64,000 nt of DNA from Amphiscolops sp. MND2022 (lineage: Eukaryota), in the NCBI GenBank assembly GCA_964187785.1, contig OZ076409.1, positions 62,064,001 to 62,128,000 on the forward strand, given 5' to 3'. This document shows, in pieces, positions 4,829 to 49,906 of this stretch (its first letter is position 1; every line of letters begins with the position of its first letter). The notes under the pieces are model-generated. The model did not search any database. It was not told the DNA's origin and saw only the letters and a list, made by a program, of their open reading frames with translations. A program made the position numbers and the translations under genes.

Positions 4829-4995
<167 letters not shown>

Positions 4996-11726: not shown

Positions 11727-12283
11727 GTTAGTTCCTTAGTTATGTATTTTAATATAAGGACCAAAATCTGGTAATAGTGCGAAACGATCGAAAAAGACAT
11801 GAATGAATAGTCTTTGAAAGTTTACTGAAATCCACCAAATTATATAAGGATATAGATCTAACACAGGACACCCCAAAGACCGGAAAAACCTGAGGAGTCA
11901 GTATAGTCAACTACATAAGGACACTGAACGCCTAAGACGTATTGACGGAAAAGTGATTTTGTGGATGTTTCGAAGACGTCCTCCGTTGTACTTTCTTGTC
12001 TGTAATTGGTACCAATAACTCGCAATAAGTTACCAAATCCAATATTCAATTAGACTTTTGGAACCTATATGAAAACTCTTAGTTCCTGGAACTTGAATTT
12101 TTCTATTGTTCAGTATTCGTACTCAATCGTGATTTTTTTCAGCCTGCTGTTTCCAAAAATCGATAATATACTTCGACTGTACCGTTAAAATGCTCTCAAA
12201 GTTGTGTCGAAAGCTGTCGTTACTCGATGTTTTGACAGCCATTTGTGCACAGTCATCTCAATGTTTTCTTGCCGGTCCATGGA

Positions 12284-12462
12284 AGTAGTGGAGTAAAGGG
12301 GGGTATAGGTAGATTTTTAATCCTTTGCAACTTTTAATAATATGAAACTTTGGTAGCTAGAATTATCAGCTGAGAGTGACAGTGATATGACAACAGAATA
12401 CACAATGGACTAACCAAGTTTAACTTTGACAGATGGTTGATATTTGGCACACACAAAGTATC
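12284..12462 (+). repeat. Polinton left TIR
   Basis: Reverse complement of 49626-49803 with ~14 differences in ~180 bp (manual count). Confidence 0.95.
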
Positions 12463-13150
12463 TATTTTAGATCTTTTATCAATATAACCTTGAACCAAAA
12501 TCAAAATGAAGGTGGATAAGAAACTTACCATATAGTACCCAGTAAGGAGAAGCGATACCCAGTAAAGGAAAAGCAGTAAATTTACCCATTTTGCCTCTAT
12601 TGACAATAATTTGCCAAATTGACTGTTGCTGGAAGTTCCTAGCACAGATTTTGGATTAAACGAGAAAATTACCGGTTAGCAACAACCGAAACACGCTGTA
12701 ACACTGTGCTAGGAACAGCTTAGGTTTTGGATGGAAAACGCCAAGAAATCATCAGGAATCGCCGCCCTGTAAAAAATTCAAACCTGCGAATGAGTTTCAA
12801 AACAGACTTCCAAAGAATCTTTCCTGATTCAACAAGAAACTCCTTAACAACAATCACTGCGAGTACAGCATCGGATGCCACGGAGGATCTGAGCTAACTG
12901 AAGCAGATCTTTGTTCAACTATCCAGTGAGAGCAGTTCCGTATTCCCCAATACATCAAGTGATTCGTGGGCGCAGAGAAATTCATAAAAGATACATGGGG
13001 TCCTCAAATCCTGGACAAATAGAAGACATTGAAAGTGACAAGTAGTCAAGTAGAGTTATTCAAAATTTTCTACCCAGAGAATTGTCTCCCAACTGAGGCC
13101 CGTCCCAGCGGAAACAGTTCATTCATTCACAAGGAGAAACTGCAAAAATT

Positions 13151-13486
13151 TTGAATTCGAAACTAACAGCGGATTTGGGATGCAACTTCAACATGATTTG
13201 GGAGCTGCAACAGAGCTGCTGCACTCCATTCAATGATAGCGAAGACTCTGAAAAACTTTTGTTTCTAAGCCAAAGATTAGATGAGCTGCAGAGGTCTCAA
13301 GCAGTATTCGAAGACAGTGTGCTTGACTTTTTTGGGCTGCTTGAGCGAGGCTTCGGGACAATCCAAGCTTCGCATCACAATAATGTTCTGTCAGTGGATT
13401 TGGGATTTTCGGACGCACGTTGCCAATTGAAAGCGTTGAAGGTCAAAACTCGAAAACTGATGATGTCGAAGAAAAAGCGAGAGTAA
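13151..13486 (+). CDS. Uncharacterised Polinton ORF (coiled-coil-like, basic C-terminus)
   Basis: 111-aa ORF inside the element, co-oriented with the + strand gene block; no motif recognised. Confidence 0.3.
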   Translation: MNSKLTADLGCNFNMIWELQQSCCTPFNDSEDSEKLLFLSQRLDELQRSQAVFEDSVLDFFGLLERGFGTIQASHHNNVLSVDLGFSDARCQLKALKVKTRKLMMSKKKRE

Positions 13487-13604
13487 ACTACACCACTGAT
13501 TTGTTCACATTCATTGATGACAATGCACAATTTCCCTATATCATTCATTAAAGTTTTTTGTTGAGGAACAGTTGCTTTAATTTGGATGAAATGAAGCTTT
13601 CAAA

Positions 13605-13979
13605 ATGAAAGATTTTTTTAAAGCTAGTGAATTGCAAACTGCTTTGAGCAAAGTTGGTTACCTTTTCCCAAGAAATACATTGCGAAAAAACGCCTTTCTG
13701 GCAGTTTGCTGCTGTATTGATAAAGTTATTAATTTGTGTGAGATCAATGACATGGTCAACTTTGGGGGCCTAAAAGGTCCCGGAAACAGTATATTGGACA
13801 AATACCTCAAACATTTCAAAATCTTCCGACTTCACGCAATTTTTCACGATGCGTTCGGTTTCATGAAAAACAATTTCGATCTTGGACCGGGATATGTTTA
13901 TGCTATCTCAAAAACAATTTTTCACGAACAGTGTGCTACTTGGAAATTTTACGGCTGCAAATGGAGCTATACAAGATAA
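13605..13979 (+). CDS. Polinton PLA2-like (parvovirus-type phospholipase A2) protein, probably 3'-frameshifted
   Basis: GGLKGPGNSILD (GPGN Ca-binding loop) followed by HAIFHDAF (HD catalytic motif). Confidence 0.6.
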   Translation: MKDFFKASELQTALSKVGYLFPRNTLRKNAFLAVCCCIDKVINLCEINDMVNFGGLKGPGNSILDKYLKHFKIFRLHAIFHDAFGFMKNNFDLGPGYVYAISKTIFHEQCATWKFYGCKWSYTR

Positions 13980-14575
13980 CAGAATATGACAAGTTTGTGC
14001 TTTAACGTTCAGTTCCAATCCAGCTTGCTCAGATGTCAGTTGTGCGCTCTTACAATGAAAATTCAATTTCACTACCTATCTCTCTCACAGCCAATTTTTC
14101 AGCTCGCTTAAATTCAAAAACGATTCTTGTTTCCATCAAGCAGTCGACCATTTCAAGTACAAAAAGTGGACAGACTTGGAGTGGAATTCATTTAAATGTG
14201 AACGGCTTGCAAAATCTCAATCAAGTTATCAATTTTGTTTTGAACATCAACCCCTATCAAAAGATATTTTTTGAAGAACAATGACAGATCAACCAGCGAA
14301 GGGGATTTAGTTGATGCACTGGATGCTAGCGACGTTAACTTCGGCAACCAAAATCGGAAAAGATCGCCATTCGAATTAAATTGAAATTGCTGCTGTTTCA
14401 GAAAAAGTATTCGCAACAGAACACTTTTCATTCTGCCCTTTCACTACTCAACAATTTTTGCAGTTGGTCTATTCAGTATTGGGTACTTAGCACTCAGTTC
14501 TCAAACTCATTATCATTCCGGCGTCTTGGCATTACTGTCTGCTTGTATTGGATTCATCATTCCGAGTCCAAGAGC

Positions 14576-15200
14576 ATGAACAGAAGAATTAAAGCGAGAA
14601 GTCCTCATTGTTTCAATTCTATTGACTGGCCAGGAGAATGCGGAAAAACTGAACTTGTGTCGCAAATGTTGCAGAATCAGCAAAAAATTTCTGGCCAACC
14701 TTCAAAAAAACTAATTTTTACAACCACTTCCGAGATAATTACCAGTCTTCATTGCTTGGGGCTTTGGCGTCAGATGAAAGAACATCAATGGAATTTCATC
14801 AAGGTCTCCAATGGTGTGCCGTCGACAAGTGTGAGACGCAAAAGATGAGAGCGTTGATTGATATCGATGAATTGTATCAAGATGCCTGCGGAGACAAAAC
14901 ATTTTTGAGCTTAGTTGTCGCGGAACGTCATCTGAATATTCACTTGATTATACTGAAGTACAACCTCTATCAACCTTCGAAAAATTCAAAAACTATCGAC
15001 TTGAATGTTACGCAGTTACTTTTCTTCAAGAGCCCTCGCGATATTGAACATATTGGCGTGTTGGGAAGACAAATGGGCGATCGACAGGTTTCATATAAAA
15101 GAGCTACACCAAGGCCTTTTGGCCATTTGTTGATTGACTTGGATTCACAAGTGGACCCTAAACTCAATTAGTCTACAGACTGCGCGGGCAACAAACCTTC
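14576..15200 (+). pseudogene. A32/FtsK-like packaging ATPase, frameshifted
   Basis: Walker A PGECGKT, Walker B LIDIDEL, motif ERHLNIHLIILKYNL, and FFKSPRD...PFGHLLIDL, split over two frames. Confidence 0.9.
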
Positions 15201-15266
15201 TGAATTTTACATTTTTTCGACTAAAATAACTGAAACTGTGGAAATTGAGTCGACGAAACATTTATA

Positions 15267-15497
15267 TGCTTGATTTGTTCACCAATATGAAACCTGTTGT
15301 CAAACAAACTTTTTTACTTCATTGCTCGAACAAAATAATAAAGTTTTTTTGGTTTTGCAATAGTCTTTTCAGTGTGGTTCACTACCGAATCATAATGGCT
15401 TCCAACGTCTCTCGCAAAGACTTGGAGAAATTCACAAGCCTGATAGACTTTCTCTGTGCAAGGAGTAACAAAATTGTCGAAAAACGTCAGTCGTTGT
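15267..15497 (+). pseudogene. Small Polinton ORF interrupted by the Gypsy insertion
   Basis: The ORF ends at KRQSLL exactly where the LTR end TGTGATAATCC starts (15498). Confidence 0.45.
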
Positions 15498-17329
15498 TGT
15501 GATAATCCTCTTCTGCATCTGATTATTCGTTTGAGAGTATAGTGATTTACCAAATATCTCATAATTCATAATTATCCCCCACCCTCTAAATGTCTAGACT
15601 TTAGAACAGTGCACCTCATCAAAATTCTAGATGTAAAATGAATTGACTGATGTACTACTTTATATTCAATACCATATATTCTGATCTGTACAACACAACT
15701 TAAATTGTTTCTTCATCGAATAGTTGTCTTCCTGTAAAAGACCCAATAACTGCAGCTCTGTTAGCGTCTCTTAAAGTACTACTCCTAACGTACAACTAAG
15801 ACCTACTTCTATCTTAATATCTAATAACCATAATAACACAAGTACTTTAACTGGTGCGACCACATCTTTTCTTTCCTTTTTACCAACATTTTTGTACTCA
15901 TTTTCTCTTTCAATACCAAACAATTTTTCTGTACTAATCATACAAAGTGATTCGACTCATTGTCGGTACACAACTTCAATCTTCTTCTGTACTAATCACA
16001 TATACAGTTTGAATCGATTTCGGAGTGGGTTGATTTTTGTGGAAATAGTTGTCTGGTGCGTCATGTAAGAATTCGTATAAGTCTTCAGGTTGAGTTTCCT
16101 GAGTTAATTGTTGTGAGTTTTCAGTTGTTGAGTCAGTTTCACAGACTGATGTTTTTGTGGGTTTTGGGCTCATCTGATGCTGTTAGTCATCAGCTAGGTT
16201 CGGTATTTGTGGTGATTTTGTGTAAAGGCGTGGCGTTTTGAGTTTAAATCCTTTGACGAGGACTGATGATGTCGTTCCATTTTTGGTCTGATTGGTTTTT
16301 TAGCTTGCTTGTACAGTTCGATACCTTTCTTTTGTGCTTCTGTCAAATTCCATTATGGTGGTCTGTTATCCGGCACCAAAATAGCACTCTTCTTCATTAT
16401 GGCCCGGGTTGTTGCAGTTCGAGCATTTGGGTGCTTCTGGGTCTTTTTCAAGTTTTCGCCGTTTTGTTGATTTGGGGCACTCAGTCATCACGTGGCTGGC
16501 ATCTTTGCAATAACGGCAATGATCTTTTTTGAGTGTTTTATCAGGTACTGTTTTTGGAGTTTGTTTTTTAACTTTGTCATTTTGTTTTTTGTTGGGTTTT
16601 CCAGTGTTTTGTTCCTTTTTAGTAACGGGTATTTGCGTTTTGACGAGGGGTTCGTCTGCTTCTAGACCGTTAAATTCCATTTCTCTTTCAAGATGTTTGA
16701 CTATTTGATCACATGTGCCATTTTCGAAGTAGGTTTGATTATTTGAATTTTTAGGGTGGGTAGGCATTTTCGCATATAGCAAATTCTCTATCATTTGGTG
16801 GCCTTATCCCCAAATGTTTTTTCAGCACTTTCTCGAAAATCTTCAAGAAAATTTGAATTGTTCTGATTTTCCGGGTTCAAATGAAGGTCTGTTGAAGCTG
16901 CTTTGCTGATGCACTGGACTCCGGTTTCACATACGTTCGTCTAAAGACTTTGAGTATGTCTTCTAAAGTCGTGTTTGGGGTTCGTTGTATGTTGTTGAAT
17001 GTCTTGAGCTCCAAACCCCTGAGAAGGGCATGAAAATGGTTAATTTTCATGTCCTCTGTTAGGTTTGGTTGCATTCGAAGTGTCGTGTGAATTAAGTCTT
17101 CAAAGTATTCAAAGTTCTCATATTTCTCGTTTTTTCCGTTAAATGTTAATGTATTTTTCGGATGAAAAAGTGATCGTGAGGAGTTTTTGTTGGCCAGTTT
17201 TTTTATTGCTAAGGCGATTTGATTAACTGTTTCAGGTGATTAACAAGTTGTGGTCTGCGTGGGATCCTACTGAGTCATTTAGTTTCTTGGAGCTTTGTCT
17301 ATGGAGTTGTCGGTTGGCTCCTGTCATCA

Positions 17330-18459
17330 TGTGATAATCCTCTTCTGCATCTGATTCTTCGTTTGAGAGTATAGTTACGTCTACGTCCGATTCGTTTTGA
17401 AATAACGGTTTAGCAGGATGTTTCAATTGTTTCTTTTCTGAAGCTCTAAGGGGATAATCATCGTTTTCAGTATCTGAGTTTTCGTTTTTAGACGCGTGAA
17501 CTCCTTTAGACTTGTTTGTTTTCTATCCCGACGGCTGTGAATCTTTGATTTCGTTGATTTCTGACCTCGGGTTTGTTACAGTTTATGCAGTTTGGTTGGA
17601 CTTTATTTCCTCAAAGAGTGTTTTGAGTTTATTTCCATTTCTTCTCTTATCTTTTCAATCTTATCGCTATTCTTTTGTTCCATGATCTGATACTTGAATT
17701 TTGTTACTCATCTGACTGGCTGGGTTCAGTAATTTTGTTTTCTAAGTTGTTTTCACCTAAACTCCCTTGAACTACAGTATTAATACTAGTTAAAGTCTCG
17801 TTACCTGTAATGGGCGTTCCTACTTGAGTTACTTCTACTTCTCTATCTGGGGAAGGAGTTTCCAATCTTCTAGAACGTCTATTACGTCTGTTTCACATAT
17901 TGCTTCGAGTGAAAACAAGGTTCTGGCTTTTGTGGAAGCATTTGAATTATCTTGTTTATTCAAAAGAACAAGATCTGAGGGTATCACAATGTTACCAAAA
18001 GGCTTACAGATGTATGAAGAGAACAACTGCACTAGTTAACGGTTGAGATGTGAATGAATCTCCCTCTCACTTCACAATGAAGTAGCTCCAAAAAGACCCT
18101 GACACTCCTTTTTTACCATAGTCATTGTTGGAAAAAGGTAAAAATAGAATTGCATCAGGTAATGTCATACTATTTATAACATTAGCTCAAGTCCATGACA
18201 TTCAAAATGTGGCTAGGGAAAGGACTGGAGAAACCCTGGAAATTACCTAAAATATAGAATAGAATGCATTTGGGATGATTTCCAAATACCACTTGTTCAC
18301 GTATTCACGTTATATAGTTGGTTATATATATAGCTGGAAACGCCTAGTGACGAGTGTGCGTCACTACTCCTTCCGCAAGATGCCGCATAGTGTCTCTGCA
18401 AAAAGCGCCCAGTGACGAGTATGTTCATTAGCAACATGAGGAAGGGTTTCATTCAAGGC
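17330..18459 (-). repeat. Gypsy LTR copy A1 (contains gag N-terminus)
   Basis: Near-identical to 19347-20470 and 27588-28710; followed on the minus strand by a PBS-like sequence. Confidence 0.8.
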
Positions 18460-18582
18460 CAGTTTTTTTTATTGCTAAGGCGATTTGATTAACTGTTTCA
18501 GGTGATTAACAAGTGGTGGTCTGCGTGGGATCCTACTGAGTCATTTAGTTTCTTGGAGCTTTGTCTGTGGAGTTGTCGGTTG

Positions 18583-18595
18583 ACTCCTGTCACCA
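18583..18595 (-). promoter_or_regulatory. Primer-binding site TGGTGACAGGAGT (tRNA-Leu-like); also at 26840-26852
   Basis: TGG-initiated sequence abutting the LTR end ...ATCACA; resembles the complement of tRNA-Leu 3' ends. Confidence 0.65.
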
Positions 18596-19320
18596 TGTGA
18601 TAATCCTCTCCTGCGTCTGATTTTTCGTTTTAGAGTATAGTTACGTCTACGTCCGATTCATTCAGCAGGATGTTTCAATTTTCATTTTTCATGCTCTAAG
18701 AGTCTCGTTACCTGTAATGGGGGTTCCTACTTGAGTTACTTCTAGTTCTCTATTTGTGGAAGGAGTTACCAGTCTTCTAGATTGTCTATTACGTCTGTTT
18801 TTCATACTGCTTTGAGTGAAAAATAGGTTCTGGCTTATGGGGAAGCATTTGATTTATCTTTTTTATTCAAAAGAACAAGATCTGATGGTATCACAATGTT
18901 ACCAAAAGATATACAGATGTACGAAGAGAACAACTGCACTGTTTAACGGTTGATATTTGAATGAATCTCCTTCTCAGTTAACAATGAAGTAGCTCCAAAA
19001 AACACCCTGACACTCCATTTTTACCATAGTCATTGTTGGAAAAAGGTAAAAACAGAATTGCATCAGGTAATGTCATACTATTTATAACATTAGCTCAAGT
19101 CCATGACATTCAAAATTTGGCTAGGGAAAGGACTAGAGAAACCCTGGAAATTACCTAAAATATAGAATAGAATGCATTTGGGTTGATTTCCAAATAGCAC
19201 TAGTTCACGTATTCACGTTATATAGTTGGTCCTGCTGGAAACGCCTAGTGACGAGTGTGCGTCACTACTCCTTCCGCAAGATGCCGCATAGTGTCTCTGC
19301 AAAAAGCGCACAGTGACGAT
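18596..19320 (-). repeat. Internally deleted Gypsy LTR variant (same variant at 26853-27569)
   Basis: Shares deletions (CCGATTCATTCAGCAGG; CTCTAAGAGTCTCGTTACC) and point variants with 26853-27569. Confidence 0.85.
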
Positions 19321-19346
19321 GTGTTGTCGGTTGGCTCCTGTCATCA

Positions 19347-20496
19347 TGTGATAATCCTCTTCTGCATCTGATTCTTCGTTTGAGAGTATAGTTACGTCTA
19401 CGTCCGATTCGTTTTGAAATAACGGTTTAGCAGGATGTTTCAATTGTTTCTTTTCTGAAGCTCTAAGGGGATAATCATCGTTTTCAGTATCTGAGTTTTC
19501 GTTTTTAGACGCGTGAACTCCTTTAGACTTATTTGTTTTGGATCCCGACGGCTGTGAATCTTTGATTTCGTTGATTTCTGACCTCGGGTTTGTTACAGTT
19601 TATGCACTTTGGTTGGACTTTATTTCCTCAAAGAGTGTTTTGAGTTTGTTTCCATTTCTTTTCTCATCTTTTCAATCTTATCGCTATTCTTTTGTTCCAT
19701 GATCTGATACTTGAATTTCGTTACTCATCTGACTGACTGGGTTCAGTAATTTTGTTTTCTAAGTTGTTTTCACCTAAACTCCCTTGAACTACAGTATTAA
19801 TACTAGTTAAAGTCTCGTTACCTGTAATGGGCGTTCCTACTTGAGTTACTTCTACTTCTCTATCTGGGGAAGGAGTTTCCAATCTTCTAGAACGTCTATT
19901 ACGTCTGTTTCACATATTGCTTCGAGTGAAAACAAGGTTCTGGCTTTTGTGGAAGCATTTGAATTATCTTGTTTATTCAAAAGAACAAGATCTGAGGGTA
20001 TCACAATGTTACCAAAAGGCTTACAGATGTATGAAGAGAACAACTGCACTAGTTAACGGTTGAGATGTGAATGAATCTCCCTCTCACTTCACAATGAAGT
20101 AGCTCCAAAAAGACCCTGACACTCCTTTTTTACCATAGTCATTGTTGGAAAAAGGTAAAAATAGAATTGCATCAGGTAATGTCATACTATTTATAACATT
20201 AGCTCAAGTCCATGACATTCAAAATTTGGCTAGGGAAAGGACTAGAGAAACCCTGGAAATTACCTAAAATATAGAACAGAATGCATTTGGGATGATTTCC
20301 AAATAGCACTAGTTCACGTATTCACGTTATATAGTTGGTCCTGCTGGAAACGCCTAGTGACGAGTGTGCGTCACTACACCTTCCGCAAGATGCCGCATAG
20401 TGTCTCTGCAAAAAGCGCACAGTGACGAGTATGTTCATTAGCAACTTGAGGAAGGGTTTCATTCAAGGCAAACATTACATAAGTGTTATAACTACA
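19347..20496 (-). repeat. Gypsy LTR copy A3
   Basis: TGTGAT start; the other end is CATTACA (20479) or ACTACA (20496), exact boundary uncertain. Confidence 0.8.
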
Positions 20497-21700
20497 TGAC
20501 TTCTTGAAAAACTAACAGAAATACAAAACAAAATGCTAGTGCGGTGGTTTAAAGTTTAGATTCACATCCTAGCTTTGAGTGTTTGTTGCGGCTGTCCTCT
20601 TGTTTGGCTTTGAATACTGATGCGCCACGGCACCCATGCAACTCCTGGGTTGCGACAGTTGGCAACTAAAAATGGAATAAAACTTTTCATCTTATAGAAC
20701 GTTCAATTTTTGATCTTTTGATGAAACACCATGATATCGTGCAGTAGCATCAAAGAATTTGTTCTGATAATACTTTACGAATCATGTCTTGTTTGTCTTT
20801 GAAGTCTACCAAATTAGAAATCACAAGATTCGAGATCGCAAATCTCAGTGAATCCTTCCCACAAGCAATCCTGCCGAAGATTGATAAAAGAACCAGTTGC
20901 GAACAGCAAGGAACAAATGCGGAAAAAATTTGCATGCAAATCAATTCAAACTGGAGGTTAAAAGGTCCACCCAAAAGGAGCGCTCCTGCTGTTGACGACT
21001 TATCCAACAAAGCTAAATCTCTTGCGAAAACGGACAGGATTGTGGTCAATTTGCTTTCTTCGGGACTTTCCGTGGGCAAAGTTGAACGGCCGAGCCAAAT
21101 CTTGCAAAAAATTGATCAGACCAAAGATGTGTTAATTGATTCAAATGCTGGTCGAATACTTATGCACGACGAAGACGTAAACAAACCAGGTTTTGATTTT
21201 TTGAATGACCTACATGTGACCACAAAGTAATTTAGTGAAAATGCTTTGGAACTGATCAGGAGAATCCGGTTAACAGAGTTTCTTCTCGCTTATACAAATG
21301 CAAAAAGTGTTGCGTCAGATATTGTCCACTATCACGAAGAAAGTGATTTGGACGAAAATATTGGAAGTTCCTCAACTGCTAAATGGTTGCATTTATATTA
21401 GCAAGAATCACTTCCACGCGAAACTCAGTTCCCGACAGTTGATCTTACCACAAGAAACGTGTAAAATTGAAAAATTTACAACTAGAAAATCTAAAACATT
21501 ATACGTTTGTGTAAATTTTGCCAGTGGATTGAGTCGAGGCTCTCGAGAACATCCTTCAATATGCTGCAACGTATGTGGATGGGTCCATTTTGCGTGAAGA
21601 GGTCGAAAACAGATGAAGGATTACAAGAAAAACTATACCTTTTTATGCACAAAGTGTTCAGCGACAAGACGATTGATCCAGCAAACAGAAGAAACCTTCA
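20497..21700 (+). pseudogene. Polinton segment (two uncharacterised degenerate ORFs), copy 1 of 3
   Basis: Homologous to 28737-29536 and 35453-36650; protein ...KTDRIVxxLLSSGLSVGKVER... is present in all copies. Confidence 0.75.
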
Positions 21701-24700
21701 CCTGAACTCTCAAAATGGAATTTTTGTCGCTTGTGTATCAGCCTTTGGGTTAAGAATGTAGCAAAAATCAGTTGTTTCAAGCGGAGCTGCTTTCGCTTTG
21801 CGGTTTTAGTAAACTTTGTAATTAATGTAAGATTGCATGATGTTCTTCTTAGTTTGATCTAGGAGGAGTTTCATGCGTTTTTGAATTTATTCTGTTTCAT
21901 CCGCTTGCGGTTGGTATCGTGGATTAGGGTTATATCCGAGTTTGTAGTCTAGGATATTGTGTGGTATTCCACCATGGAAGACTCGTGAAGGTTCACAACC
22001 GAGTGATGCATGGCGTGTTTTGTTGTAATTAAGGACTACCAAAGGGAGTTATTTATGCCAGTTATTCCTAAACTCGCCTGTTGCAGCTTTTAGGTGTGTT
22101 TTGACTGATGCATGAGTTCTCACAAGGAGTCCTATTGTTTGGGCATGTTTTATTGTTGCGTGCTTCAGAGTTCAATTCCCAGCACTGCTGCGACTTTGTG
22201 AGTTACTTGTGCATTGAAGTGAGTGCCTAAATCCGTGATTATCGTTGTTCGAAGGTATGTGTGTTTGCATTGAATGTCCATGATGACTCTTGATACTGCT
22301 GTGACAGTAATACGAGTTACAGGGTGGGCAAACAAGTATCTTGAGAAGATATATATTGCTGTGATGATACGGTCATAGCCTCCACTGGGGGGAAGGTTTG
22401 GTAAAATATCCCTTTGCAAGATGTTTTTCGGTCCGAGATCCTATTCTGGACAATTGAGGAGTTCTGTCCTGAGGAGATCATTAATGATTCGTTTTGTTTG
22501 GATGCAGATTTGGCAATTACTAACCCTTTTTTGATGTATTTTGCCATGCATGGGTAGTATTATTTTTGCCGTGTTTCATGAATCATCTTGGTGATTCCGG
22601 GGTGGTTTGAATTATGACCATGCAGAGCTTGAAAATTTTCTTCTAGGAGTTGGATTGGTAGAATGATTTGGCAGTGAGATATGGTTCCGGTGTCCGTGTA
22701 GTATTTGCGTGTGAGAAGTTCCTGTTTTATCTCTATTCGCGTTATGTTTTGTAAGTAGTGCTGATATCTATAGTCTGATGCCAGTTCATTTCCGTCAAAA
22801 GGGTTTCCTTCGATTTTTTCTCTCAGGTTTCTAAGGACTATGTCATTATTCTGCTCAAGGCGGATTCTTGCGATGTGTTCAAAGTATCCTGAAGAGAAGG
22901 AGATCAGTCCTGATGTAGGTTTAAGTAATTGTTGTAGCTCAGAAACAGCGTTTTCTGGGTCATTGTGTGTTTCAGTTTGTGCCTGATTCCGTATGTTTTG
23001 TTTTTCTTCCCATAATTGATTTTCATCAATATCGTCATCGGGGAGGTCATAAATTTGTTCTTCTTTGACGATGCCGGATGATTGAATATTCACTTCAATC
23101 GCTTTCGTGTGAAAATCATTGCGAATGGCCTTTTCCAGTTTTTCGGTTGAATCGACTTCCGTTCTAGATAAGAAGTCGGCAGCGGTGTTCATTGATCCAG
23201 CAACATGGGTGATCACGAAATAGTTTTGTAGGACATAATGGCTGGCATTCCAGAGTGCTGGATTGATCATTTTTGTTTGGAAAAAACGAGTTATTGAACC
23301 TTTCATCTCTGAACACGATTACTGGGAAGGTACTACCCCACATGAAGTGTCCGAATTCAACAAATGCAAAGTTTTTGGAAAAAATTTCTTTTGCATAAAT
23401 TGACATTTTTGTCTGTGTTGGGTTGAAAGTTTTTGAACAAAATACTATGGGTTCATGTTTTGCGTTTGGATTGGAGTTTTTGGTTCGGGTTGTTTTCGAT
23501 CATGATAGCATATCCTGCTGCTGTGAAACTTGCATCGGACATGACTAAAAGGTGCTTGTTTTTCAGTTGTTGTTTTAAAACTAACTGGCAGGGATTTTCT
23601 AGGAGTTTGTTGAGGTTTGTGAAGGCTTCTACCTAATTTGTTGGAAAGTACAATTTGGAGGTTTCTTTGAGGAGTTCGAAGAACGAAGAGAGAGCCGTTC
23701 CGAAAGGCGTGGTATGTAGTTTCGGTAGAAGTGTAAAAATCCGATATACCTCTGTCACGCCTTTTTTGATCTAGGAAAGTGAGAGAAATTCTTTCACTTT
23801 GTTGGCTTGAATCCGTTTGGTGTGATTGTGCGTCCCAGAAAGTCGACTTGTTTGACTCCAAAGTGGCATTTTGACATTGAGTGTTTTATTCCTGCATTGC
23901 GTTTGCATTAAAAGACAGTTTCGATATTTTTACACAATTGTTTTGTGTCATTTGACGCTATGCCAATGTCGTCGACATATTGGGCACATTGGTTTGCTTT
24001 AATTGCTCTGTCTAGGTACTCTCTCTTAAAGCCTGAAAATGCAGAAAGTGATCTGCTGAGACCCCGAGCAAGGCGACGATGAGCAAATGTTCTACTTGCA
24101 GAATTGAAAGCGGGCATTTGAATGGATTGGCAACCTGCCATCAGAAGGCAGTGGTAAGCCTGCGAGCAATCCAATTTGCAGACAAGTTTTTTCCCTGCCA
24201 TGTTTTGGGCTGCATCCGATAAAGTGTTTAACGGGTGGTTGTTATTGGTGTTATCTTCAGTGATGAGGTTGTTAATCTTCCTGAGGTTTACTAAAAGTCT
24301 GAGGCGCCCGTTGGGTTTGCGTTGCGCAAAAATTGTGTTTGCATGTTCGGCGAAAAGTAAAGTTGTAATGATACCGTACTTGTGTAGAAGTGCAAGTTCT
24401 ACTGTGATATCATCTTTGAGGTTAAAAGGAGTTGGCCGACATTGACTGTAAGCATGTCTGTCATCATTCGGCGTTAGTTTCACTTTGAATTCACGGTTTA
24501 TGCCTTTATCTAAACGATGTCCGGCAAAATTATTGTGGAATTCCATGAGGATCTCTTCACTTTTTTGTCGTTCTTCTGGGCTGAGCGTTGTGTCGGACCA
24601 GTCGAAGTTTGAAAGGAATGCAATTCTGGATGCTTTTCTGGATCCTGCACTGAATTTTGTTGTGGTACTTTGAAAAATCCATTTATGTAGACTTCCGTTG

Positions 24701-39852: not shown

Positions 39853-39882
39853 TTCGGAAGCCGCTTGAACAAACTGGCGGAA

Positions 39883-40800
39883 ATGCAATCCCAAGACTTT
39901 ACAATGAATTTAGTGTCAAACGCCTCGATAGCAACCTTTCCAAACAAGACGCTGGCACACATGACAACCTCACTATCACAACAACTTATCCGGAGCGTGG
40001 GAAGTAGCAGTGTCGGAAGTTTCGTGGCCTTCAGCAATTCAAAGCATTACCAGCGGCAAATTCAAGTACCAGCTAAAACCAGCTCAACCAGATGATGGGC
40101 ATAGAGAAGACCAGAGGGAAAAAATTCACAAGAGAGCGTATGGCCTAGTGACCATGCACACCCCTCCTAAAATTGAAGATCATTACCTTGAACAGAAGAC
40201 CGGTACCATTAAACCAGGATTTTGCTTGACTGTCGACAAAATTTTGACGAACATTTTCAAAAAATCTTTTTAATTGCTGCAGCATAATTGCCAGTTACAT
40301 GAAATGTTGACAAGTCGTCACAAACATTGAAGGTTTGTTTTGATGGTAGCGAACGTGATTGCATTCTATTGAAAGCTACATCAAACGATTTGCAAAATAT
40401 GTTGGGCTTGAAAACAATTATTGATTGTAAGGAAGACAGTCAGTTCAACTTCGAGAACCAACCCTTTGAATTCAAAGACTGTCAGCAAGTTTCCAATTGA
40501 TATCAGCGGTGTGTGCAAGACGATCTATCTCTATTGCGATGTGGTGCAAAATGAAATTTTGGGAGACTCACAGACTGCGTTACTACGTATTCCACTATGC
40601 AATTTCCCAAGTAAACACCCCAGGCAACAATATTTAAACTATCAAACATTTACCAATCTCCAGTGGCGACGAATAGTCAAATCGAGCATCGAGTCAATAA
40701 CAATTTCCTTACGTAGCGAGTCGAGCCATCTGTTGCTTTTTTTAAGTCGAGGTCGCACGAACATCACTCTTCAATTTCGCCAACGCTGTGAGAGTTCCAT
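39883..40800 (+). pseudogene. Polinton minor capsid (penton) protein, copy 1
   Basis: FTMNLVSNAS..FPNKTLAHMTT.L, SEVSWP, IYLYCDVVQNEILGDSQTALLR and IESITISLR...ITLQFR. Confidence 0.88.
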
Positions 40801-41069
40801 TCTGGTCAAAGTCATCACCCTGAGCGGTCGCTTTATCGATGCTTCTTGCGATGCTCATTTTGGACTGCAAGTTCATCATCAATAAACATTTGGCGGCCCG
40901 GCGAGGCAATTTGGATCCGGTGGAATGGGCGCTTTTGCCATGCGTATGGGAAGAGTAGCGGTACCCCTTGTGAAAAATATATCTTGCCAGTTGCAAAACA
41001 GTTTGGAAAAAACTTGGTTCCGGCTTTTGTTACTGAACTGTCAACCGTTGTTTTCGGAAAAAACGACTT

Positions 41070-42765
41070 GTTTCAGAAAACCGCACTGATAATGACATCC
41101 AAATTTATTCCACGCACAGCGAACAATGTCAGCGTTTGCAGAGCGCAGTATTCGATCACTGAAGGCAAATTTGTTCAAATTTTTGCACGAAAACAACATC
41201 GATACTTATGTAGAAAACCTGCAACAATTCGTGGACGTCATCAACAGCCGTGTTAATTGTGTCACCAAGCTAGCTCCAAAGGAAGTACGCAAGTCGGATG
41301 TTCCATATTTGATTTCCTTGAAAACACTAATATTCCTCTTCGGCTAATGTTTCACATTGCCCAGCAAGTGAAAACAAAACGTAAAAGTGAGACTTTTCAT
41401 AGATGGTACTGCATTCAGTCCACTGAGGCGGTTTTCACGATAGCCGCAGTATAAACACTGAACCCTCCCACTGATACAATTAGGGACGCCAACACTCAGT
41501 TGTTTCTTGGGGAATTTCATGAGTCTGAACTAACTAGATTCGAAGAATCTCCTTTGTAATTCGGAAGCCGCTTGAACAAACTGGCGGAAATGCAATCCCA
41601 AGACTTTACAATGAATTTAGTGTCAAACGCCTCGATAGCAACCTTTCCAAACAAGACGCTGGCACACATGACAACCTCACTATCACAACAATTTATCCGG
41701 AGCGTGGGAAGTAGCAGTGTCGGAAGTTTCGTGGCCGTCAGCGATTCAAAGCATTACCAGCGGCGAATTCAAATACCAGCTAAAACCAGCTCAACCAGAT
41801 GATGGGCATAAAGAGGAACAAAGGGAAAATTTCGCAAGAGACTGTATGGCCTAGTGACAATGTACACCCCTCCTAAAATTGAAGATCATCACCTTGAACA
41901 GAGAACCGGGACCATTAAACCAGGATTGTGCTTGACTGTCGACCAAATTTTGACAAGCATTTTCAAAAAATCTTTTCAATTGCTGCAGCATAATTGCCAG
42001 TTACATGAAATGTTGACAAACTTCACAAACATTGAAGGTTTATTCTGATGGTAGCGAACGTGATTGCATTCTATTGAAAGCTTTATCAAACGATTTGCAA
42101 AATAAATTGGGCTTGGAAACAATTATTGATTGTAAGGAAGGCAGTTCAACTTCGAGAACCAACCCTTCGAATTCAAAGACTGTCAGCAAGTTTCCAATTG
42201 ATATCAGCTGTGTGTGCAACACGATCTTTCTCTATTGTGATGTGGTGCAAAATGAAATTTTGGGAGACACACAGACTGCGTTACTACGTATTCCACTAAG
42301 CAATTTCCTAAGTGAACACCCTAGGCAACAATATCTAAACTATCAAACATTTACCAATCTCCAGTGGCGACGAATAGTCAAATCGAGCATTGAGTCAATA
42401 CCAATTTCCTTACGTAGCGAGTCGGGCCATCTGTTGCCTTTTTTAAGTCGAGGTCGCACGAACATCACTCTTCAATTTCGCCATTGCTGTGAGAGTTCCA
42501 TTCTTGTCAAAGTCATCACCCTAAGCGGTCGCTTCATGGATGCTTCTTGCGATGCTCATTCTGTACTGCAAATTCATCATCAATAAACATTTGGCGGCCC
42601 GGCGAGGCAATTTGGATCCGGTGGAATGGGCGCTTTTGCCATGCGTATGGGAAGAGTAGCGGTACCCCTTGTGAAAAATATATCTTGCCAGTTGCAAAAC
42701 AGTTTGGAAAAAACTTGGTTCCGGCTTTTGTTACTGAACTGTCAAACGTTGTTTTCGGAAAAAAG
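41070..42765 (+). repeat. ~1.7-kb tandem duplicate of 39363-41063 (integrase 3' half, minor capsid, core protein 5' part)
   Basis: Near-identical sequence restarts at TTTCAGAA..CCGCACTGATAATGACATCC (~41071). Confidence 0.95.
41590..42500 (+). pseudogene. Polinton minor capsid protein, copy 2
   Basis: Same motifs as copy 1 (FLYCDVVQNEILGDTQTALLR). Confidence 0.88.
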
Positions 42766-43024
42766 ACCGCGCAAAGCTTTGAAAGACACCTTGAGGAAAA
42801 ATGCCATGAAAACATTGATGACCGACAGCAGCCAGGCGACGACTAAGGTCACGCTCTGGAAAACGGCGTCGAACGGGCCTTCGAGTAATTCGGGCTCACC
42901 GGCTACCAAAAAAGGCAAAGAAAAGATTACAAGCCTTACTGGCAGACCATTGACGACCTTTTCTAAAAAGAAGTCAGCCAAAAGAAGTCTCTCCGAGATT
43001 CTTTCCAACGACCACTTTTCCTAA
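42536..43024 (+). pseudogene. Polinton virion core-like protein (adenain substrate type)
   Basis: RQFGSGGMGAFAMRMGRVAVPLV: QxGxG followed by an amphipathic helix, with a basic C-terminus; located between mCP and MCP. Confidence 0.55.
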
Positions 43025-43040
43025 CTTTTCTTTTTCGGCA

Positions 43041-44390
43041 ATGAATAGTGGAAGCAGCAATGGCACAACAGGCACTTTGTTTACCGAAGCGTCGGAAATT
43101 GGCAGACCATTTACACAAAGTGCTTTGGACTTTTTCGAGCAACCGACTGTTTTGATCGATTATAAAGGTTCATTTGATCAGGAAGTATTTATCCACGTGG
43201 ACTGTCGCGGGCGCCAACTGGAGTTTGTTGTTTCAGCTGAAAACAAAAATTGTATAGACTTGAAGAGCCTTCGTCTAGCTCTGGAGGTGTGCATTTACGG
43301 ACCAGATGGCAACGACAAAATTACACCTGCAGACGTGGACTTCACATTTGCAAATAACATTTTACACTCTTTATTTTCTTATGTGGAGCTCTTTTTCGAC
43401 CGAAAATTGGTTTCCAGCAGCAACAATAATTATCATCATTTGGCCTAAATCGAAACTGAACTTACAACAGACATTGTCAGCAAGATGATGTGGGCTCAAT
43501 GTCAAGGCAATCACTACAGAGCGAATGACAAGTCTACTCAAGAGCTGAAGTTGAAGCAGCTGGACAATTTCCAAAAGAACGAAGAAATCTAAATTAAACT
43601 CCATGGCCCGCCGCATCATTTTTGCCTGGGGTTTCCACCCATTTGCGGTTCTACAGATAGCTGAGCAATTGCGCTCTCCAAAGCGTAGGTACTTGGACTG
43701 CGGATGACATCAAACGAATCGATCAGGCGCCTTTCTCTGTAGTTTTTGAAAAAAGCATCCCTTTTTGTAAGCAAAACTGTGCTGTCTGATTCCGTTGGAG
43801 TCAGTATAGAAGGAGCCCTGTTGAAAAGAGACGCTGTTCCTCCTTACATCGTAAGCCTGAACAAGCGTTTTATAATCCAAGCTGGACAAACTTGTTTTGT
43901 GAAGGAAAACGTTTTTGGGACAAAACCAATCAGCAGATTGACGTTGTGCATGGTGAGAAACAAATTTTTCAGGGTATCGACAATTGGAAGCACGCCGTTT
44001 CGATACAAAAAATTCAACCCGAGTAAAGTTGAAAGTCAGCGCAGCAATGAAGCTCCCATTGCTGGGACACCCATAAGGACTATAAATTGCTTACGTCTTT
44101 TTTTACAACACCATTTGTGCTCTAGGTTTATGAGAATGGCGGGAATGGAATATGAATGATATGAATATGACTTTGAAGATTACTTTTTCCTAGTTTTCTA
44201 CTTAACCTCGTCAAGAGAAGCGAGCAAGACGCTCACTCTTTTTCCGGAATTCACTGGAGGTGGCCTCACTCTCTAAAGTTGGATTTTTCAGAAGCCCTAA
44301 CGGATCCTATCGAACTTTTTATTGTTGGTGAAAGATTCAGTCAAGTGTTCATTTTCTCAAGGCGTAATATACGAAAAAATTTTCGAAGCA
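43041..44390 (+). pseudogene. Polinton major capsid protein (double jelly-roll)
   Basis: SALDFFEQP, LEFVV...IDL, NNILHSLFSYVE, SNNNYHH, ENVFG...RLTLCMV, TPF.Y..F and LDFSEAL...LFIVGE; stops and frameshifts present. Confidence 0.9.
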
Positions 44391-44394
44391 AACG

Positions 44395-44880
44395 ATGGAT
44401 ATCTTCACACTTACAAACGTGGCTGAAAGCTGCTGTTCATTTTCGCAATTGAAATATGCTGGTGTTGGTCGGCAAACAAGTTGTCATTACCGTCACTGGA
44501 TATGATGAAGAATGAGACTGTTAATACAACCAGCAAAATTTTTAGACCTTGTTTTTGAACTGTTATTTCATTATTACCACATCTCCAGTAGGAGCTGTCG
44601 TACAGCATTGGTTGTTGGTATTCGTATAGAGACCGCAAGTGTTTCTCAAGAGGCAATTGAAAACACTTATTTGCGTATGGGACCCATTAGGAAACCTTTT
44701 GTGAATTACACTTCAATTTTTGAACACTTGTTGACACTTTTCAAAAAGATTGGCACTGGAGAAATTTTTGAAATCAAGTTTCTTTTGCAAACATTGCCTT
44801 CAAACACTTGTGGTCTGCATTGTCTTCACATTGCTCATTACTTGATGCGTCTAGCTGATCACTTCATTTTTATTTTGTAA
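44395..44880 (+). pseudogene. Adenain-like (C5) cysteine maturation protease
   Basis: LQTLPSNTCGLHC (LQxxxSxxCGxxC motif) immediately after MCP; the catalytic His region is degenerate. Confidence 0.75.
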
Positions 44881-44989
44881 TGATCACTGTAAAACGATGT
44901 TGATGTATAAAGTAACATTACTCATGAGTATCATACCTGTGAATGCATGTAAATTTTACAGAACCTTGCCCAAAAACTGGCAGTTGAGT

Positions 44990-47900
44990 TACTTTTGACA
45001 AGCATTTTTACAGGAAGGTTCAGCATCAGGGCTTACATCGCTTTCAGAAGCCTCGTAGTCTAAAAAAGGACATGCAAAACGTGTAGCATCGGAATCAGAA
45101 ATTTCATCATTGGTAAGGGTATCAAAATTGATACACTGAGCTTCCTTGTCAGAACTCTCGTCGCTTGATTGGTTGAGAATGATCCAGGATCAGGAGCCGC
45201 TAAAATTGAAACATCTTTGTATCACACTCATCGAGTTTATCGATTAGTACAAGGTAATGCATGACAACTAGGATACCGTGTCATCTAAAATGTACCGCTT
45301 GTCATCGTAGCAGCTCAAAGGAACTTTGTTGACAGAGTTGACAAATATTTGATGACAGGTTGATTTGAGTTGAATCATCTTTCTACGTTCTGTTGATCGA
45401 GAAATTCGACCATCTGTGAATAAATTATGATGTAGCCTTTTTTGAAAGATTTCTGAACGCCTTTAGCACTCTGCTTAGTTCCTCCCACGTGATCGATGCT
45501 ATACAAGTTAGAACTCAAACAGACAACTTGTTTTAAAACTTTTCCGTTGAGTTCATCGGTCATTGTTAATGGTACCTTTTTGTTGGCTTTCTCTTGTAGA
45601 AAATGATTAACAGAGTGTTCCGAGAGGTCCAATAGATGTTTGAATGTGGCCATATTTTTATACAATTCTTCAGTTTTGATTCGATAAAGCAGGGAGTCTG
45701 TGTCTTTGTACGCTACTTTTACACGGTCTGCTCCATACCGCGGAAACATCTCCTCATATTGAAACTTGTACAAAGAAAGTTTTAAAAGTCCAAAATACTC
45801 ATGCCAACGTGTGTTGGTTTGTTCCATACCACTGAAGAGGGTTTCAAAGGAACAGAAACAAAATTTTTCTGATGTTTTCGAAACTTTTGAAGGTTGCCCG
45901 TTGAAAAACGTTTCAGCTTGAGTCTCTGTTGGAACGAACTTTAGAGTACTCACTACGATACATATGCCGCAAAAGTGGACTTTGTCATCCAGTGTAATGT
46001 GTATTTTCCGTAAAACGAGAGCAAACCGTATTCTAGTCAAATAGTGCACTGTGTTCATCGGGGATTGTGATGCACAGTGTAACAAGAATTTTTGCATCGT
46101 GATCATTGAGACTGATCTTGTAAAGTAGGTATTTACTGTATTTTGATCACTACGCGTAACGCCAAATCACACAGTGTAACGATGCAAAACACGTAACGCA
46201 TATATGAAATAAGAACGCGTTTTCCTTGGCTGTTAATCGAAATAGCAAGATCTTGCTAGTTCGTTGCGTCAAATGTATCGTGATGCTACGTCTTCTTAGA
46301 TTTTCCATTGTTTTGCTAAAAAAACATTCGACATTAGCTTGTGAAAATTTTTCTCGGAGTCAGTCGCGGCAATTTTACGCATTACAGTTTCTTTGGCTAT
46401 GTACGTTCCCAACCATTTCGACTGATGAAATTTTATCGCCCGGTGTAGATTCGTGACTATAGGACCATGTTAGAAATAGAATTTAACGTTTTCATGATGG
46501 CAAATGTAGTTATTTGTCAAGCATGGTCTCTATAAGCTTTTTATTTGCCGAGCTCATATTCAATCCAAATGACTTGGCAAAATCCGATTTCCATTCTTTA
46601 GGTATTTTTAGTTTTTCCGGAGTCAATGAAAGATCATTATGAGAGTTGTGTATTCAGGGAGGGTACACGAGGTCAACCTCGACGAAGTAACCAACGGGAG
46701 AGTCTTTGGGCGTAGACAGAATTTCATTCAAAGTAATATCAAGACACCATTGATACCCTCCGAGAGGCATTCCCATTTGCATCGTTCCTGCGTACAGAGA
46801 TGTTACATCAAAAAACGCCCCAAAAGTAACGTCTTTTTCAGGATTGAAATTATCCAGATACTTGTTGTTAGCTTCAAAATGCCCCAAGGCACCAACACCA
46901 TTGATTTTTTCTCGGATTGTTCTCTCAAATAACAACAGCTGATCAGTTTCCTGCATTAGTTCCATTTAAACGCCAGTTTTGATTTGCATGGCATCCCAAC
47001 TCAGGTTCGGAGCCGAATAAAAATGAGCTGTATCTAGCCTGTAGACTTGCAAGCAGACCTCCCTGAACCTTTGAAAAATATCGACCAGGATGAACACTTT
47101 TCAGATAGATATCTTGATAGTCGCCTAAATTTTGGCAAAGAAAAGCATTTTACATCTCCAAAGCACAACCATAATCTTGCTCAGTAATTTCAATACGTTT
47201 GCAAACTTTTCAAGGGAGTCAAGAAAAATGTATGGAAAGAGTCGTTTTGGGAAGATACTCTCGGTAATGTTTGGAGAACATGCCTTCAACAACTTGAAGT
47301 CTTGCTTGTCCAAGATTTCATCTAAAGATCCCAAGCTCTGAGACATAAACTGGAAGCTGTCCAGAAACCGTCAAGAATGATATTGAATGTAATTGTGACC
47401 CTTCTTGCTTTTGAGTTTTTCTATGGGCATATCCAAAAAGAACGAAATATGTAAGTTTCATGGTTTTTCGCTGTAGATGACAACTTTTCACCAGTCTCGA
47501 TTACCAAGTATTCAATAATATGATATGAGCGTCATAACGCGAGAGGTTGTGAAAAAATGCCGCCAAGAAAGTTGTTGTTCTCGCACGCAGGTTGCACTTG
47601 GAAAGAGCTACTCCAAATATTGTATCCGTTAGGTGACAGTGGTGAATTACCTGTTGACTTTCTTTCATCTCCTCACCACATAAACGGCATCTCAAGTAAT
47701 CTTGGTTCAGTAGAGAAATTCTATCATCTTTGGATATTCGTAGATTTTACATTTGTGTTTCTCTTTGAAATGCCATGTTGACCACAACTGAAGCAACTTC
47801 ATCCAATGTTGAATGCAGTCTTTTCCTTTTTAAATCTCTTTCTTCACAAAACTGTTACTTAAACTAAAAATTTTGGGTCAGAACGGGTTTCGTGAAACGC

Positions 47901-49207
47901 ACGTTTTTGATGCCGAAAAACCTAAAACTGCAAAGTTACTTCTATCGTCGATGAGAACAGCACCAACATTACACGGAAACTGCTTTTCACGTTCTTTAGT
48001 GTTGCTTCCCACAGTCGTAGATGGATTCAAAGGGACATCAATTGTCTCCAAATCTGCGTACACAAAAAAGGGGACTCTCTGTGTTTTCTGCCACCTGACA
48101 AACTCGAAAAAAAGAGCACACGTCGGCATACGAATTCCGAGTGGAGAGTAAGACTCACAAAATTTGAAACGTTTCCTGAAGTTTTTCTTGATGATAGGCT
48201 GAAAGCAGTTGGAGCAGAATTTTGACATTGAACCTTTCTTACGTTTGCAATTCGATGGTGTTAGTCGCTGAAGTAGATTGGAGAAATTAGTGATTAGGCA
48301 GTAGTGAGAGTTGGAGTCCACTATCAAAAGCAGCAGGTTAATTCGTTGCCTGGAAGTTTTTTGCTTGCTATAATACACAGAAACCAACTGCCTTCCTTCG
48401 AGTTGATAAACATTGATTGAAACATCATTCGACCGCTGGAAAGTAGGAAAACTGAATCAGGGCATTGGCATTCGCTCCGAATTAATTTCAGTCGCATCAT
48501 ATTTTCCTTGTGATTACTAGGATGGCTGGGTTGATCAATGAAAGAGAATATTGCAGCTGCTACGCAGTAAAGAAAACAAAAGTTGTCCTTCTTGTTCTTG
48601 ATGTTCAGCAAGCTGCGGGAAAGACCTTTGAGAACAGTTGGCGTTGCATTTTATGAATATTCACAGGCCATTTGGCACGTAGCTGTTTTGACTTCAACTG
48701 AAAGTAGAGAATATATCATCAAACCAGATCCACAGGATGCGTAAACACTCAAATTGGAAATGAGTTGGTCTTCATGAACGTGATATTTTTTATCTGTGAT
48801 ATATTCAGCCAAACGCATGTTATGAGAATTGAAGAAAGATGTCACGTCATCGTTGGTCAGTGGTTTCACAAGTTTAACAGCAATGCTAACTCCCACTTTT
48901 AAATTGGACTTTTAAATATTCCAATATATATGGAACAAAAGAAACACCTGTGAGCCGATGGAGACTGATGTTGATTTCTAAGATGCTTCAAGAAAGTCTT
49001 GCTTCGGTTGAATTGACTGCGACATTCTCCGCATTCGGATGAGGTAGAGTTCTCCACCAAATTTTGGCTATGTTTCGTTTTGAGACGGTTATTCAATTAC
49101 CGTCGGGAAGTGAAGACTTTTCCGCATGTCTCACACAGATGCATGATCTTTTATTCGAAAGAAGACCTGAAGGAGAAAGCTTTCTTGATTGGTTTTTGCA
49201 TTGACAT
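44990..49207 (-). pseudogene. Protein-primed family B DNA polymerase (pPolB) with N-terminal C2H2 fingers
   Basis: Exo I VYADLET, Exo II FHNLSRYDAH, Pol A FDVTSLYA, Pol B KLMSNVF..KTMENLRRR, Pol C YKDTDSL, and SAKGV and YDDKRY; many frameshifts. Confidence 0.95.
45951..46285. mobile_element. 335-bp CACTA/CMC-type MITE inserted in pPolB
   Basis: Imperfect 22-bp TIR (CACTACGATACATATGCCGCAA / TTGCGTCAAATGTATCGTGATG) and 2-bp TSD CT. Removing it restores ENLRRRSTLKFVPTE in frame. Confidence 0.8.
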
Positions 49208-49625
49208 TTTTAAGCTTTCATTGATTCAATCTGATTCACATCATTTTATAAAAAGGTTTCAGTCAAAAATTTTGTTGCATTTTTGGAAAACATTTCAATC
49301 GAAAACAAATCATTGTAATTCGATCCAAGAAAGCCTCCTCTTTGGAAATTCGATCTTTTTAAAAACCTGTTTTCAGTGAACAAACATTTGTTTTTATTTC
49401 AAAGAAAAGTTCTGAATAATACATGTTTCGTTTGAAACTGGTGCTTCAGGTTGAAGCAATTGCTATTCGAAAGTTTTGATAAAGTTTGGTTCAGAAAATT
49501 CAGTTTCAATGAAGCGTGGTTTCATTTGAGTTTCTATTACATCTTATAATTGGAAATAGACGACCGGTGTCAATTTTGTTAGATTTGGGTTCAATTTCAG
49601 AACCATGATAGAATTCATTAACATC

Positions 49626-49803
49626 GATACTTTGTGTGTGCCAAATGTCAACCAACTGTCAATGTTAAACTTGGTTAGTCCCTTGTGTATTCAGTTGCCA
49701 TATGACTGTCACTCTCAGCTGATAATTCTAGCTACTAAAGTTTCATATTAGCAAAAGTTGCAAAGGATTCAAAATCTACCTAACCCCCCCTTTACTCACT
49801 ACT
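49626..49803 (-). repeat. Polinton right TIR
   Basis: Ends ...TTTACTCACTACT and is followed by TSD CATGGA. Confidence 0.95.
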
Positions 49804-49906
49804 CATGGATTACATTTGTTAGTGTTTCATTGTTGGAAATTTTGTTGGCTTGATTTTTCATTGACTCTAGTCTCTGGAAATAATCGATGGTGGTTTGCAT
49901 TCACAG

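Follow-up and report, generated by a model that had tools for sequence, protein, structure and literature searches.

The 64,000-nucleotide stretch of Amphiscolops sp. MND2022 DNA analysed here (contig OZ076409.1, positions 62,064,001 to 62,128,000; hereafter the window) contains a Polinton, one insertion from a family with near-identical young copies elsewhere in the genome, situated in the intron that follows the ATG-only exon of an eEF2 gene. The explanation that we favor, and consider quite probable, is that a single capsid-encoding Polinton of 14 kb, now broken, inserted long ago into the first intron of an eEF2 gene that is itself a tandem duplicate, and that the protein-primed DNA polymerase B (pPolB) of its family is likely expressed by splicing of an inherited host-type intron. 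The fossil insertion itself is ordinary; the new points are the intron-bearing Polinton lineage and the asymmetric eEF2 duplicate.

The ends of the element (Table 1) are those described in an earlier note made from the sequence of this DNA alone. A perfect 6-bp target-site duplication, CATGGA, flanks a unit of 37,520 bp that starts with AGTAGT and finishes with ACTACT (the chance of two identical 6-mers is 3e-4 at the composition of the window), and the terminal inverted repeats (TIRs), of about 185 bp, constitute the longest inverted repeat in the window (179 nt, 92%). Aligned with each other, the two TIRs show 169 identities and 15 mismatches over 185 nt, and the alignment collapses past ~190 nt. 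The right end lies 97 bp upstream of the start of eEF2 exon 2, close to the ~100 bp estimated before. The idea of a single integration into an eEF2 intron also held, in that the element is collinear with 14 further copies of its family and its flanks adjoin in a tandem eEF2 paralog located 89 kb upstream. This paralog represents the empty site, matching positions 11863-12267 and then 49806-50825 unbroken, and because it joins both flanks without a gap, the element can be placed in the intron after the ATG-only exon. The proposed empty-site check was thus borne out for the contiguity of the flanks, but the literal empty-site string is absent from the paralog.

Searching the genome itself with the left TIR, as the note had suggested, gave 98 first-look candidates, 40 of which were scored, and 14 copies could be fetched from paired matches, all collinear end to end with the window element. 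Among the 40 listed TIR matches, 28 are the two ends of these 14 copies and 2 are the window's own. The family unit measures 14.05 kb, 13 of the 14 copies being 13.8-14.06 kb long. The other, at 18.25 kb, is a young copy (G000:C13:26748161-26766411, L055-L056) lengthened by an internal duplication of 4.2 kb, and its virion module is rearranged. Pairwise divergence is 0.1-1.3% for 13 copies, ~6% for one, and 10.5-12.4% for the window copy. A perfect 6-bp target duplication was found for 13 of the 14 copies: a script identified it in 12 of the 13 to which it was applied, and inspection by eye in the remaining one. The sole copy without it (G000:C3:32198834-32212879, L033-L034), which is 0.1% from another copy, may have arisen by recombination between copies. 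The divergence between the TIRs of one element was considered as a clock and dropped, since the TIR pairs of young copies already differ by 8-12 mismatches.

The combination of AGT-ended TIRs, a 6-bp duplication, pPolB, an rve integrase, an A32-like ATPase and a double jelly-roll major capsid protein (MCP) identifies the element as a Polinton. Unbroken frames for the integrase (INT, 404 aa), the MCP (456 aa) and the 772-aa part of pPolB are present in 11, 6 and 6 of the 14 copies, respectively. Using Pfam on genes of a young copy, the packaging ATPase matched Pox_A32 (E 1.3e-6, 28.6 bits, above the 22.8 cut-off), and pPolB matched PF03175 with E 4.5e-22 (79 bits, cut-off 25.8) and additionally has C2H2 fingers and a nuclease-like insert (Endonuclease_7, E 7e-5). 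The integrase match to rve (E 9.4e-7, 29.5 bits) is slightly below the cut-off of 32.6, and the 6-bp duplications fit such an enzyme; an N-terminal PHD-like zinc finger was also seen in this protein (L045:4696-5910, E 0.019). For the putative adenovirus-type cysteine protease the profile match, to Peptidase_C48 (E 7e-4), reached 20.0 bits against a cut-off of 20.7, and the sequence match in the PDB only E 0.35. The MCP of a young copy is predicted to adopt a double jelly-roll fold (model pLDDT 85.7), and the model superimposes on the PBCV-1 capsid protein with E 2.8e-15, Z 27.5 and an rmsd of 3.0 over 356 aligned residues. Two open reading frames (ORFs) of the young copies, ORF1 (291 aa) and ORF2 (138 aa), had no Pfam match up to E 0.01 and no Atlas match. 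ORF2 (L045:1998-2414; 13615-14003 in the window) carries GPGN and HD motifs reminiscent of a parvovirus-type PLA2, a resemblance without database support.

The window copy has the gene order and strands of the young family, as previously stated for its virion module: ATPase, INT, putative minor capsid protein (mCP), core, MCP and putative protease on the plus strand and pPolB on the minus strand. It is nonetheless a dead, decayed fossil, once capsid-encoding, and not the 'complete' provirus of the earlier description. Compared gene by gene with natural young copies over 4,410 aligned codons (a count that includes the duplicated parts), it has accumulated 35 stops as well as 50 indels that shift the frame, with dN 0.094 and dS 0.18. 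Every tested gene is broken, the core ORFs included, and four deletions of ~160, 80, 330 and 240 bp (~0.8 kb in total) have affected ORF1, the protease gene and pPolB, the last at both of its ends.

In young copies pPolB is laid out as two ORFs of 506 and 772 aa, separated by 82 nt of the form GTAAGT...TTTAG in phase 1. A database homolog of 1,268 aa (P0126) aligns through residues 1-479 with one frame and through 479-1265 with the other, the joint falling at the GT/AG ends. The best database relatives of pPolB comprise unnamed proteins, a single one from an acoel and others from ants. GT...AG has been retained in 13 of the 14 family copies, once as a 66-nt version, and the acceptor has been lost in the oldest fetched copy and in the window copy. 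A protein search of the genome with an 83-aa piece of pPolB gave 718 first-look candidates, of which 150 were scored. We read 27 loci, hand-picked for varied frame lengths so that counts among them are not frequencies, and dropped three fragmented ones (L130, L134, L135). A GT-AG intron at the identical codon and phase was present in 12 of the remaining 24, 11 were intronless and 1 was unreadable. By sequence the 12 intron loci make up six families, and their introns, 62-88 nt long and 64-77% AT, are unlike each other. In a tree of the downstream part of pPolB (35 rows), the 10 intron rows constitute one branch (support 87/93; 94% of 200 bootstrap trees recover it), and the intronless families and uninterrupted outgroups fall outside it. 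The simplest reading, on these sequence comparisons, is a single gain of the intron by one Polinton lineage, followed by its retention in at least six families. The pPolB of the family is likely spliced like a host gene, although descriptions of such elements usually present them as intron-free. At one locus (L140) the intron is a 63-nt version that contains no stop, such that the pPolB frame reads through when unspliced. The genome is in general very rich in Polintons, with at least 10 families among the loci read.

Three eEF2 copies are present in the genome: that of the window, the tandem one, and one on C4. All of them have 855 codons, no stops and AG/GT at every splice site, exons 4-8 of the window gene lying past the window end after an intron 3 of 38.3 kb. 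Private changes are distributed very unequally, the nonsynonymous/synonymous counts being 59/34 for the window copy, 0/25 for the tandem copy and 16/93 for the C4 copy, and 60 private amino-acid changes in the window copy contrast with 0 in its tandem neighbor. The ratio on the window branch, ~0.48, is below neutral (p 0.0009) and above that of the neighbor (Fisher p 2e-9), and the GTPase and diphthamide motifs are retained. Most likely, the window eEF2 is under relaxed purifying selection with its frame intact. The host gene is not the conserved housekeeping copy that it had been thought to be: it is a tandem duplicate, redundant, whose protein has evolved at an accelerated rate. Introns 1-3 of the tandem pair are 12-19% apart in six blocks and 6.5% in one short block. 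The insertion would be about as old as the eEF2 duplication, and is placed after it, by parsimony only, because the neighbor does not carry it.

Several points weigh against this interpretation. The minor capsid protein, in Polintons a single jelly roll, is assigned by position: profile matches are weak (Zav_19, E 0.19; EhV penton, E 0.57), the single-sequence fold of the 300-aa ORF has a pLDDT of 33.6, its 4,147 relatives are unnamed, and Pfam on 89 of these relatives returned nothing relevant. At the insertion site the paralog is ~10 bp shorter owing to an indel, and divergence cannot order the insertion relative to the eEF2 duplication. The ultrafast bootstrap of the intron branch, 87, is under the 95 mark, and the tree leaves out 5 of the 24 loci because their frames are broken or short, among them L147, the sole locus of one intron family. 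As to the host gene, 16 of the eEF2 changes affect near-invariant residues (e.g. F56S, I68F, R441C, G456S and R724L). A 413-bp tract identical to the paralog reflects recent gene conversion across ~125 kb, a process that can repair a frame; it lies past the window end (L078; 91302-91714 in window numbering) and runs from the end of exon 5 to the start of exon 6. On the upstream side of the ATG exon, homology extends for ~180 bp only, and a promoter was not found there.

These last observations, and the two 38-kb introns of a gene that is normally expressed at a high level, are what would be expected if the window eEF2 had been silenced, by the Polinton or by promoter loss, and were a young pseudogene whose frame was kept by chance and by conversion. 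We regard this as rather unlikely. At the decay rate of the Polinton, 16.5 disablements would be expected under neutrality throughout and none is found; in a two-phase model with ~34 neutral changes, ~3 disablements would be expected, and the probability of seeing none is ~0.04, which disfavors that variant as well. Window-private changes are spread over all seven exons tested, indicating that conversion did not homogenize the gene. Using as a reference 87 full-length homologs out of 120 listed, invariant sites take 16 of the 60 changes, where neutrality would put 47% of them (p 0.002), and 31 of the 60 new residues are seen in homologs, the expected share being 23%. The nearest eEF2 cluster is uninformative on expression, the window-private residues being found in 0 of its 6 members: four from Logan/JGI are 93-97% identical to the paralog and probably come from other species, and two short ones from ENA (98-99% to the paralog) are genomic.

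A second question is whether the 82 nt in pPolB are spliced at all. An ATG is available to the downstream ORF 14 codons past the acceptor, and gene callers list products of 771-818 aa, as would be the case if the stretch stayed in the RNA and pPolB were produced by separate translation of its two ORFs (506 and 772 aa) or by recoding. This seems very unlikely to us, given that six families, with intron lengths (62, 68, 68, 69, 82 and 88 nt) that represent all three phases modulo 3, have GT and AG at an identical codon and phase. Excising exactly the GT-AG stretch restores the 23-nt spacing of intronless relatives, and the break point lies just after the YADLE motif, presumably exonuclease I, inside a folded domain. 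Both the GT-AG ends and the restored collinearity with uninterrupted homologs are as in a spliceosomal intron, and splicing is the reading that we retain for pPolB.

Enlargement of the element by nested events, also claimed earlier, is confirmed, but from the 14.05 kb seen in young copies and not from 15-17 kb. Nested transposon DNA makes up about 21 kb of the gain, mostly through tandem duplication of one Gypsy element rather than separate insertions. By length, the element consists of ~13.1 kb of single-copy Polinton, 3.4 kb of duplicated Polinton, 18.4 kb of long terminal repeat (LTR) element DNA and 2.55 kb of non-autonomous DNA transposons. The Gypsy element entered at 15498, has 1.55-kb LTRs and is flanked by a 5-bp target duplication with one mismatch; its TG...CA LTRs and its order of protease, reverse transcriptase (RT), RNase H (RH) and integrase are those of Gypsy elements, and a copy elsewhere in the genome has 1.55-kb LTRs and a GTACT duplication. 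A second LTR family inserted into the 3' LTR, and a later deletion joined its stub to gag. Half of the Gypsy together with ~1 kb of Polinton is present in three tandem copies, 7.5-11% apart, likely through unequal exchange; the lower divergence between the Polinton pieces S1 and S2 (5-6%) and within one 1.9-kb block shared by X and Y (1.1%) points to later events. The 335-bp miniature inverted-repeat transposable element (MITE) shows inverted ends of 18 bp and target duplications of 2 bp at 8 of 8 loci read, including the window, and shares a terminus with the 2.2-kb insert; both are presumably CACTA/CMC-like. LTR retrotransposons of this genome (L101-L108) are unusually long, at ~15-18 kb between LTR starts. 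That the two ends belong to different elements, or that the triplication is an assembly artefact, might be suggested by the 1.1% divergence of the X/Y block and by the TIR being a dispersed repeat, but this is extremely unlikely in view of the identical 6-bp flanks, the collinearity with 14-kb copies, the contiguous flanks in the paralog, the accounting of listed TIR matches given above, and the 5-11% divergence of the remaining duplicated blocks.

Table 1. Coordinates of the Polinton, its nested insertions and the eEF2 exons (window numbering)
Feature	Position	Strand
eEF2 coding exon 1, ATG only, followed by GT donor; layout common to all three copies	11724..11726	+
Left target-site duplication, CATGGA	12278..12283	.
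Left TIR, AGTAGT start	12284..12469	+
Two broken ORFs; ORF1 without start	12744..14003	+
Packaging ATPase, broken	14576..15273	+
Gypsy block X: 44-bp 3'-LTR stub, stub of second LTR family, deletion, gag, rearranged 5' LTR	15498..20657	-
465-bp stub of second LTR family, within block X	15540-16004	
Polinton piece S1, the first of three in tandem; holds the 223-aa ORF and the 5' end of INT	20658..21702	+
Gypsy part Y (integrase-RH-RT-protease-gag-LTR), tandem copy; RVT_1 match	21703..28897	-
Polinton piece S2, internally deleted	28898..29538	+
Gypsy part Y', tandem copy; rve, RT_RNaseH and aspartyl protease matches	29539..35609	-
Polinton piece S3, running on into remaining INT	35610..36711	+
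2.2-kb non-autonomous DNA transposon, high-copy family, CATTACGATAC-type terminus	36712..38929	.
INT 3' part, putative minor capsid, core ORF; all broken; includes the 1.7-kb tandem duplication	38930..43024	+
1.7-kb tandem duplication, INT-mCP-core, 4.6% apart	39363-41063 / 41071-42764	
MCP gene, broken by 4 stops and 6 frameshifting indels	43041..44395	+
Putative cysteine protease gene, broken, part deleted	44394..44861	+
pPolB gene, broken, two deletions	45270..49144	-
MITE, 335 bp, 18-bp inverted ends, 2-bp target duplication, inside pPolB	45951..46285	.
pPolB intron remnant, 81 nt, acceptor lost; coordinates approximate	47859..47939	-
Right TIR, ACTACT end	49619..49803	-
Right target-site duplication, CATGGA	49804..49809	.
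eEF2 exon 2, open, AG/GT intact	49907..50303	+
eEF2 exon 3	51449..51900	+

Other features were noted around the insertion. Of the 38.3 kb of eEF2 intron 3, 12.9 kb is a 171-bp satellite, in arrays with 341-342-bp higher-order periods at 53409-54655 and from 61302 to ~72300 (L070), and a fragment of the satellite monomer occurs in intron 7 of the C4 copy. Between these arrays, at 55903-59291 on the plus strand, a run of A-rich broken ORFs (262, 285, 150 and 188 aa) without a Pfam match under E 0.05 is probably a decayed retroelement. Upstream of the window eEF2 are a (TAG)56 microsatellite (4829-4995) and a 210-bp tandem repeat (1311-2217).

Polintons insert through their integrase, replicate by protein priming and package their DNA by means of the ATPase into a double jelly-roll capsid. 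From this biology, the retroviral-type integrase would have made a cut with a 6-bp stagger, and repair would have left CATGGA on both sides. The inserted copy then decayed and acquired the Gypsy element, half of which, with ~1 kb of Polinton, was triplicated in tandem, likely by unequal exchange, and an LTR stub, two non-autonomous DNA transposons and the 1.7-kb duplication were added. Its intronic position, and the existence of two further eEF2 copies, presumably explain why the insertion was tolerated. The reading frame of the host eEF2 stayed intact even as the protein changed at a much higher rate. If the pPolB intron was indeed gained once and retained in at least six families, production of the replicase would depend on nuclear transcription and on the host spliceosome.

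It is tempting to go further and propose that this recently spreading, capsid-encoding Polinton clade uses its ancient intron as a replication switch, and that the eEF2 paralog with two 38-kb introns is a specialized elongation factor, lowly expressed or restricted to some tissue; we think this unlikely as it stands. Were the switch real, RNA left unspliced would yield no more than the ~500-aa N-terminal zinc-finger/terminal-protein part and spliced RNA the full polymerase, and the host cell type could gate mobilization, by analogy with the splicing of P elements. A conserved spliceosomal intron implies nuclear, host-dependent expression of the replicase, and the presence of young intron-bearing and intronless families side by side would allow splicing and regulation to be compared directly in one genome. 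There is also a practical consequence: Polinton surveys score intactness by uninterrupted ORFs, so that an intron-bearing lineage would be counted as broken or missed. The eEF2 trio for its part is a clean example, provided by nature, of tandem duplicates that evolve asymmetrically, with the Polinton inside as a dated neutral yardstick.

Our literature search revealed no spliceosomal intron in pPolB of an animal Polinton, although supplements, Repbase and subscription papers may hold cases, and nothing related to a Polinton within a host intron. The element is nevertheless close to known systems. Vertebrate Mavericks have 6-bp duplications and (AGT)2//(ACT)2 ends, 96% of their loci are eroded, and the intact ones have intronless ORFs, according to the accessible part of that survey (PMC8097293). 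The family described here resembles them in its 6-bp duplication, AGT/ACT ends, TIRs and genes for INT, pPolB, ATPase, capsid and a putative protease, and differs in the position-conserved GT-AG intron of pPolB, found in six families, and in its unit of 14.05 kb. With adintoviruses, as defined in PMC8502044, it has in common PolB, an rve integrase, an FtsK-like ATPase, a hexon-like capsid protein, a putative cysteine protease and an animal-type genome, but is known here from integrated copies alone; the portion of that article available to us describes PLA2X and mentions introns once, for group II maturases. The nuclease-like insert in pPolB (Endonuclease_7) can be likened, by description, to the HNH-bearing pPolB2 reported for nematode and oomycete Polintons in the part seen of 10.1101/2023.08.22.554363. 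Finally, Maverick/Polinton-like proviruses of full length from dinoflagellates contain introners (10.1101/2025.03.18.643946, as far as the available text goes), and as such are another instance of spliceosomal-type introns inside Polinton-like elements. In contrast to those mobile introners of protists, the introns described here occupy one position across families that are ~60-65% identical in pPolB, and differ in sequence.

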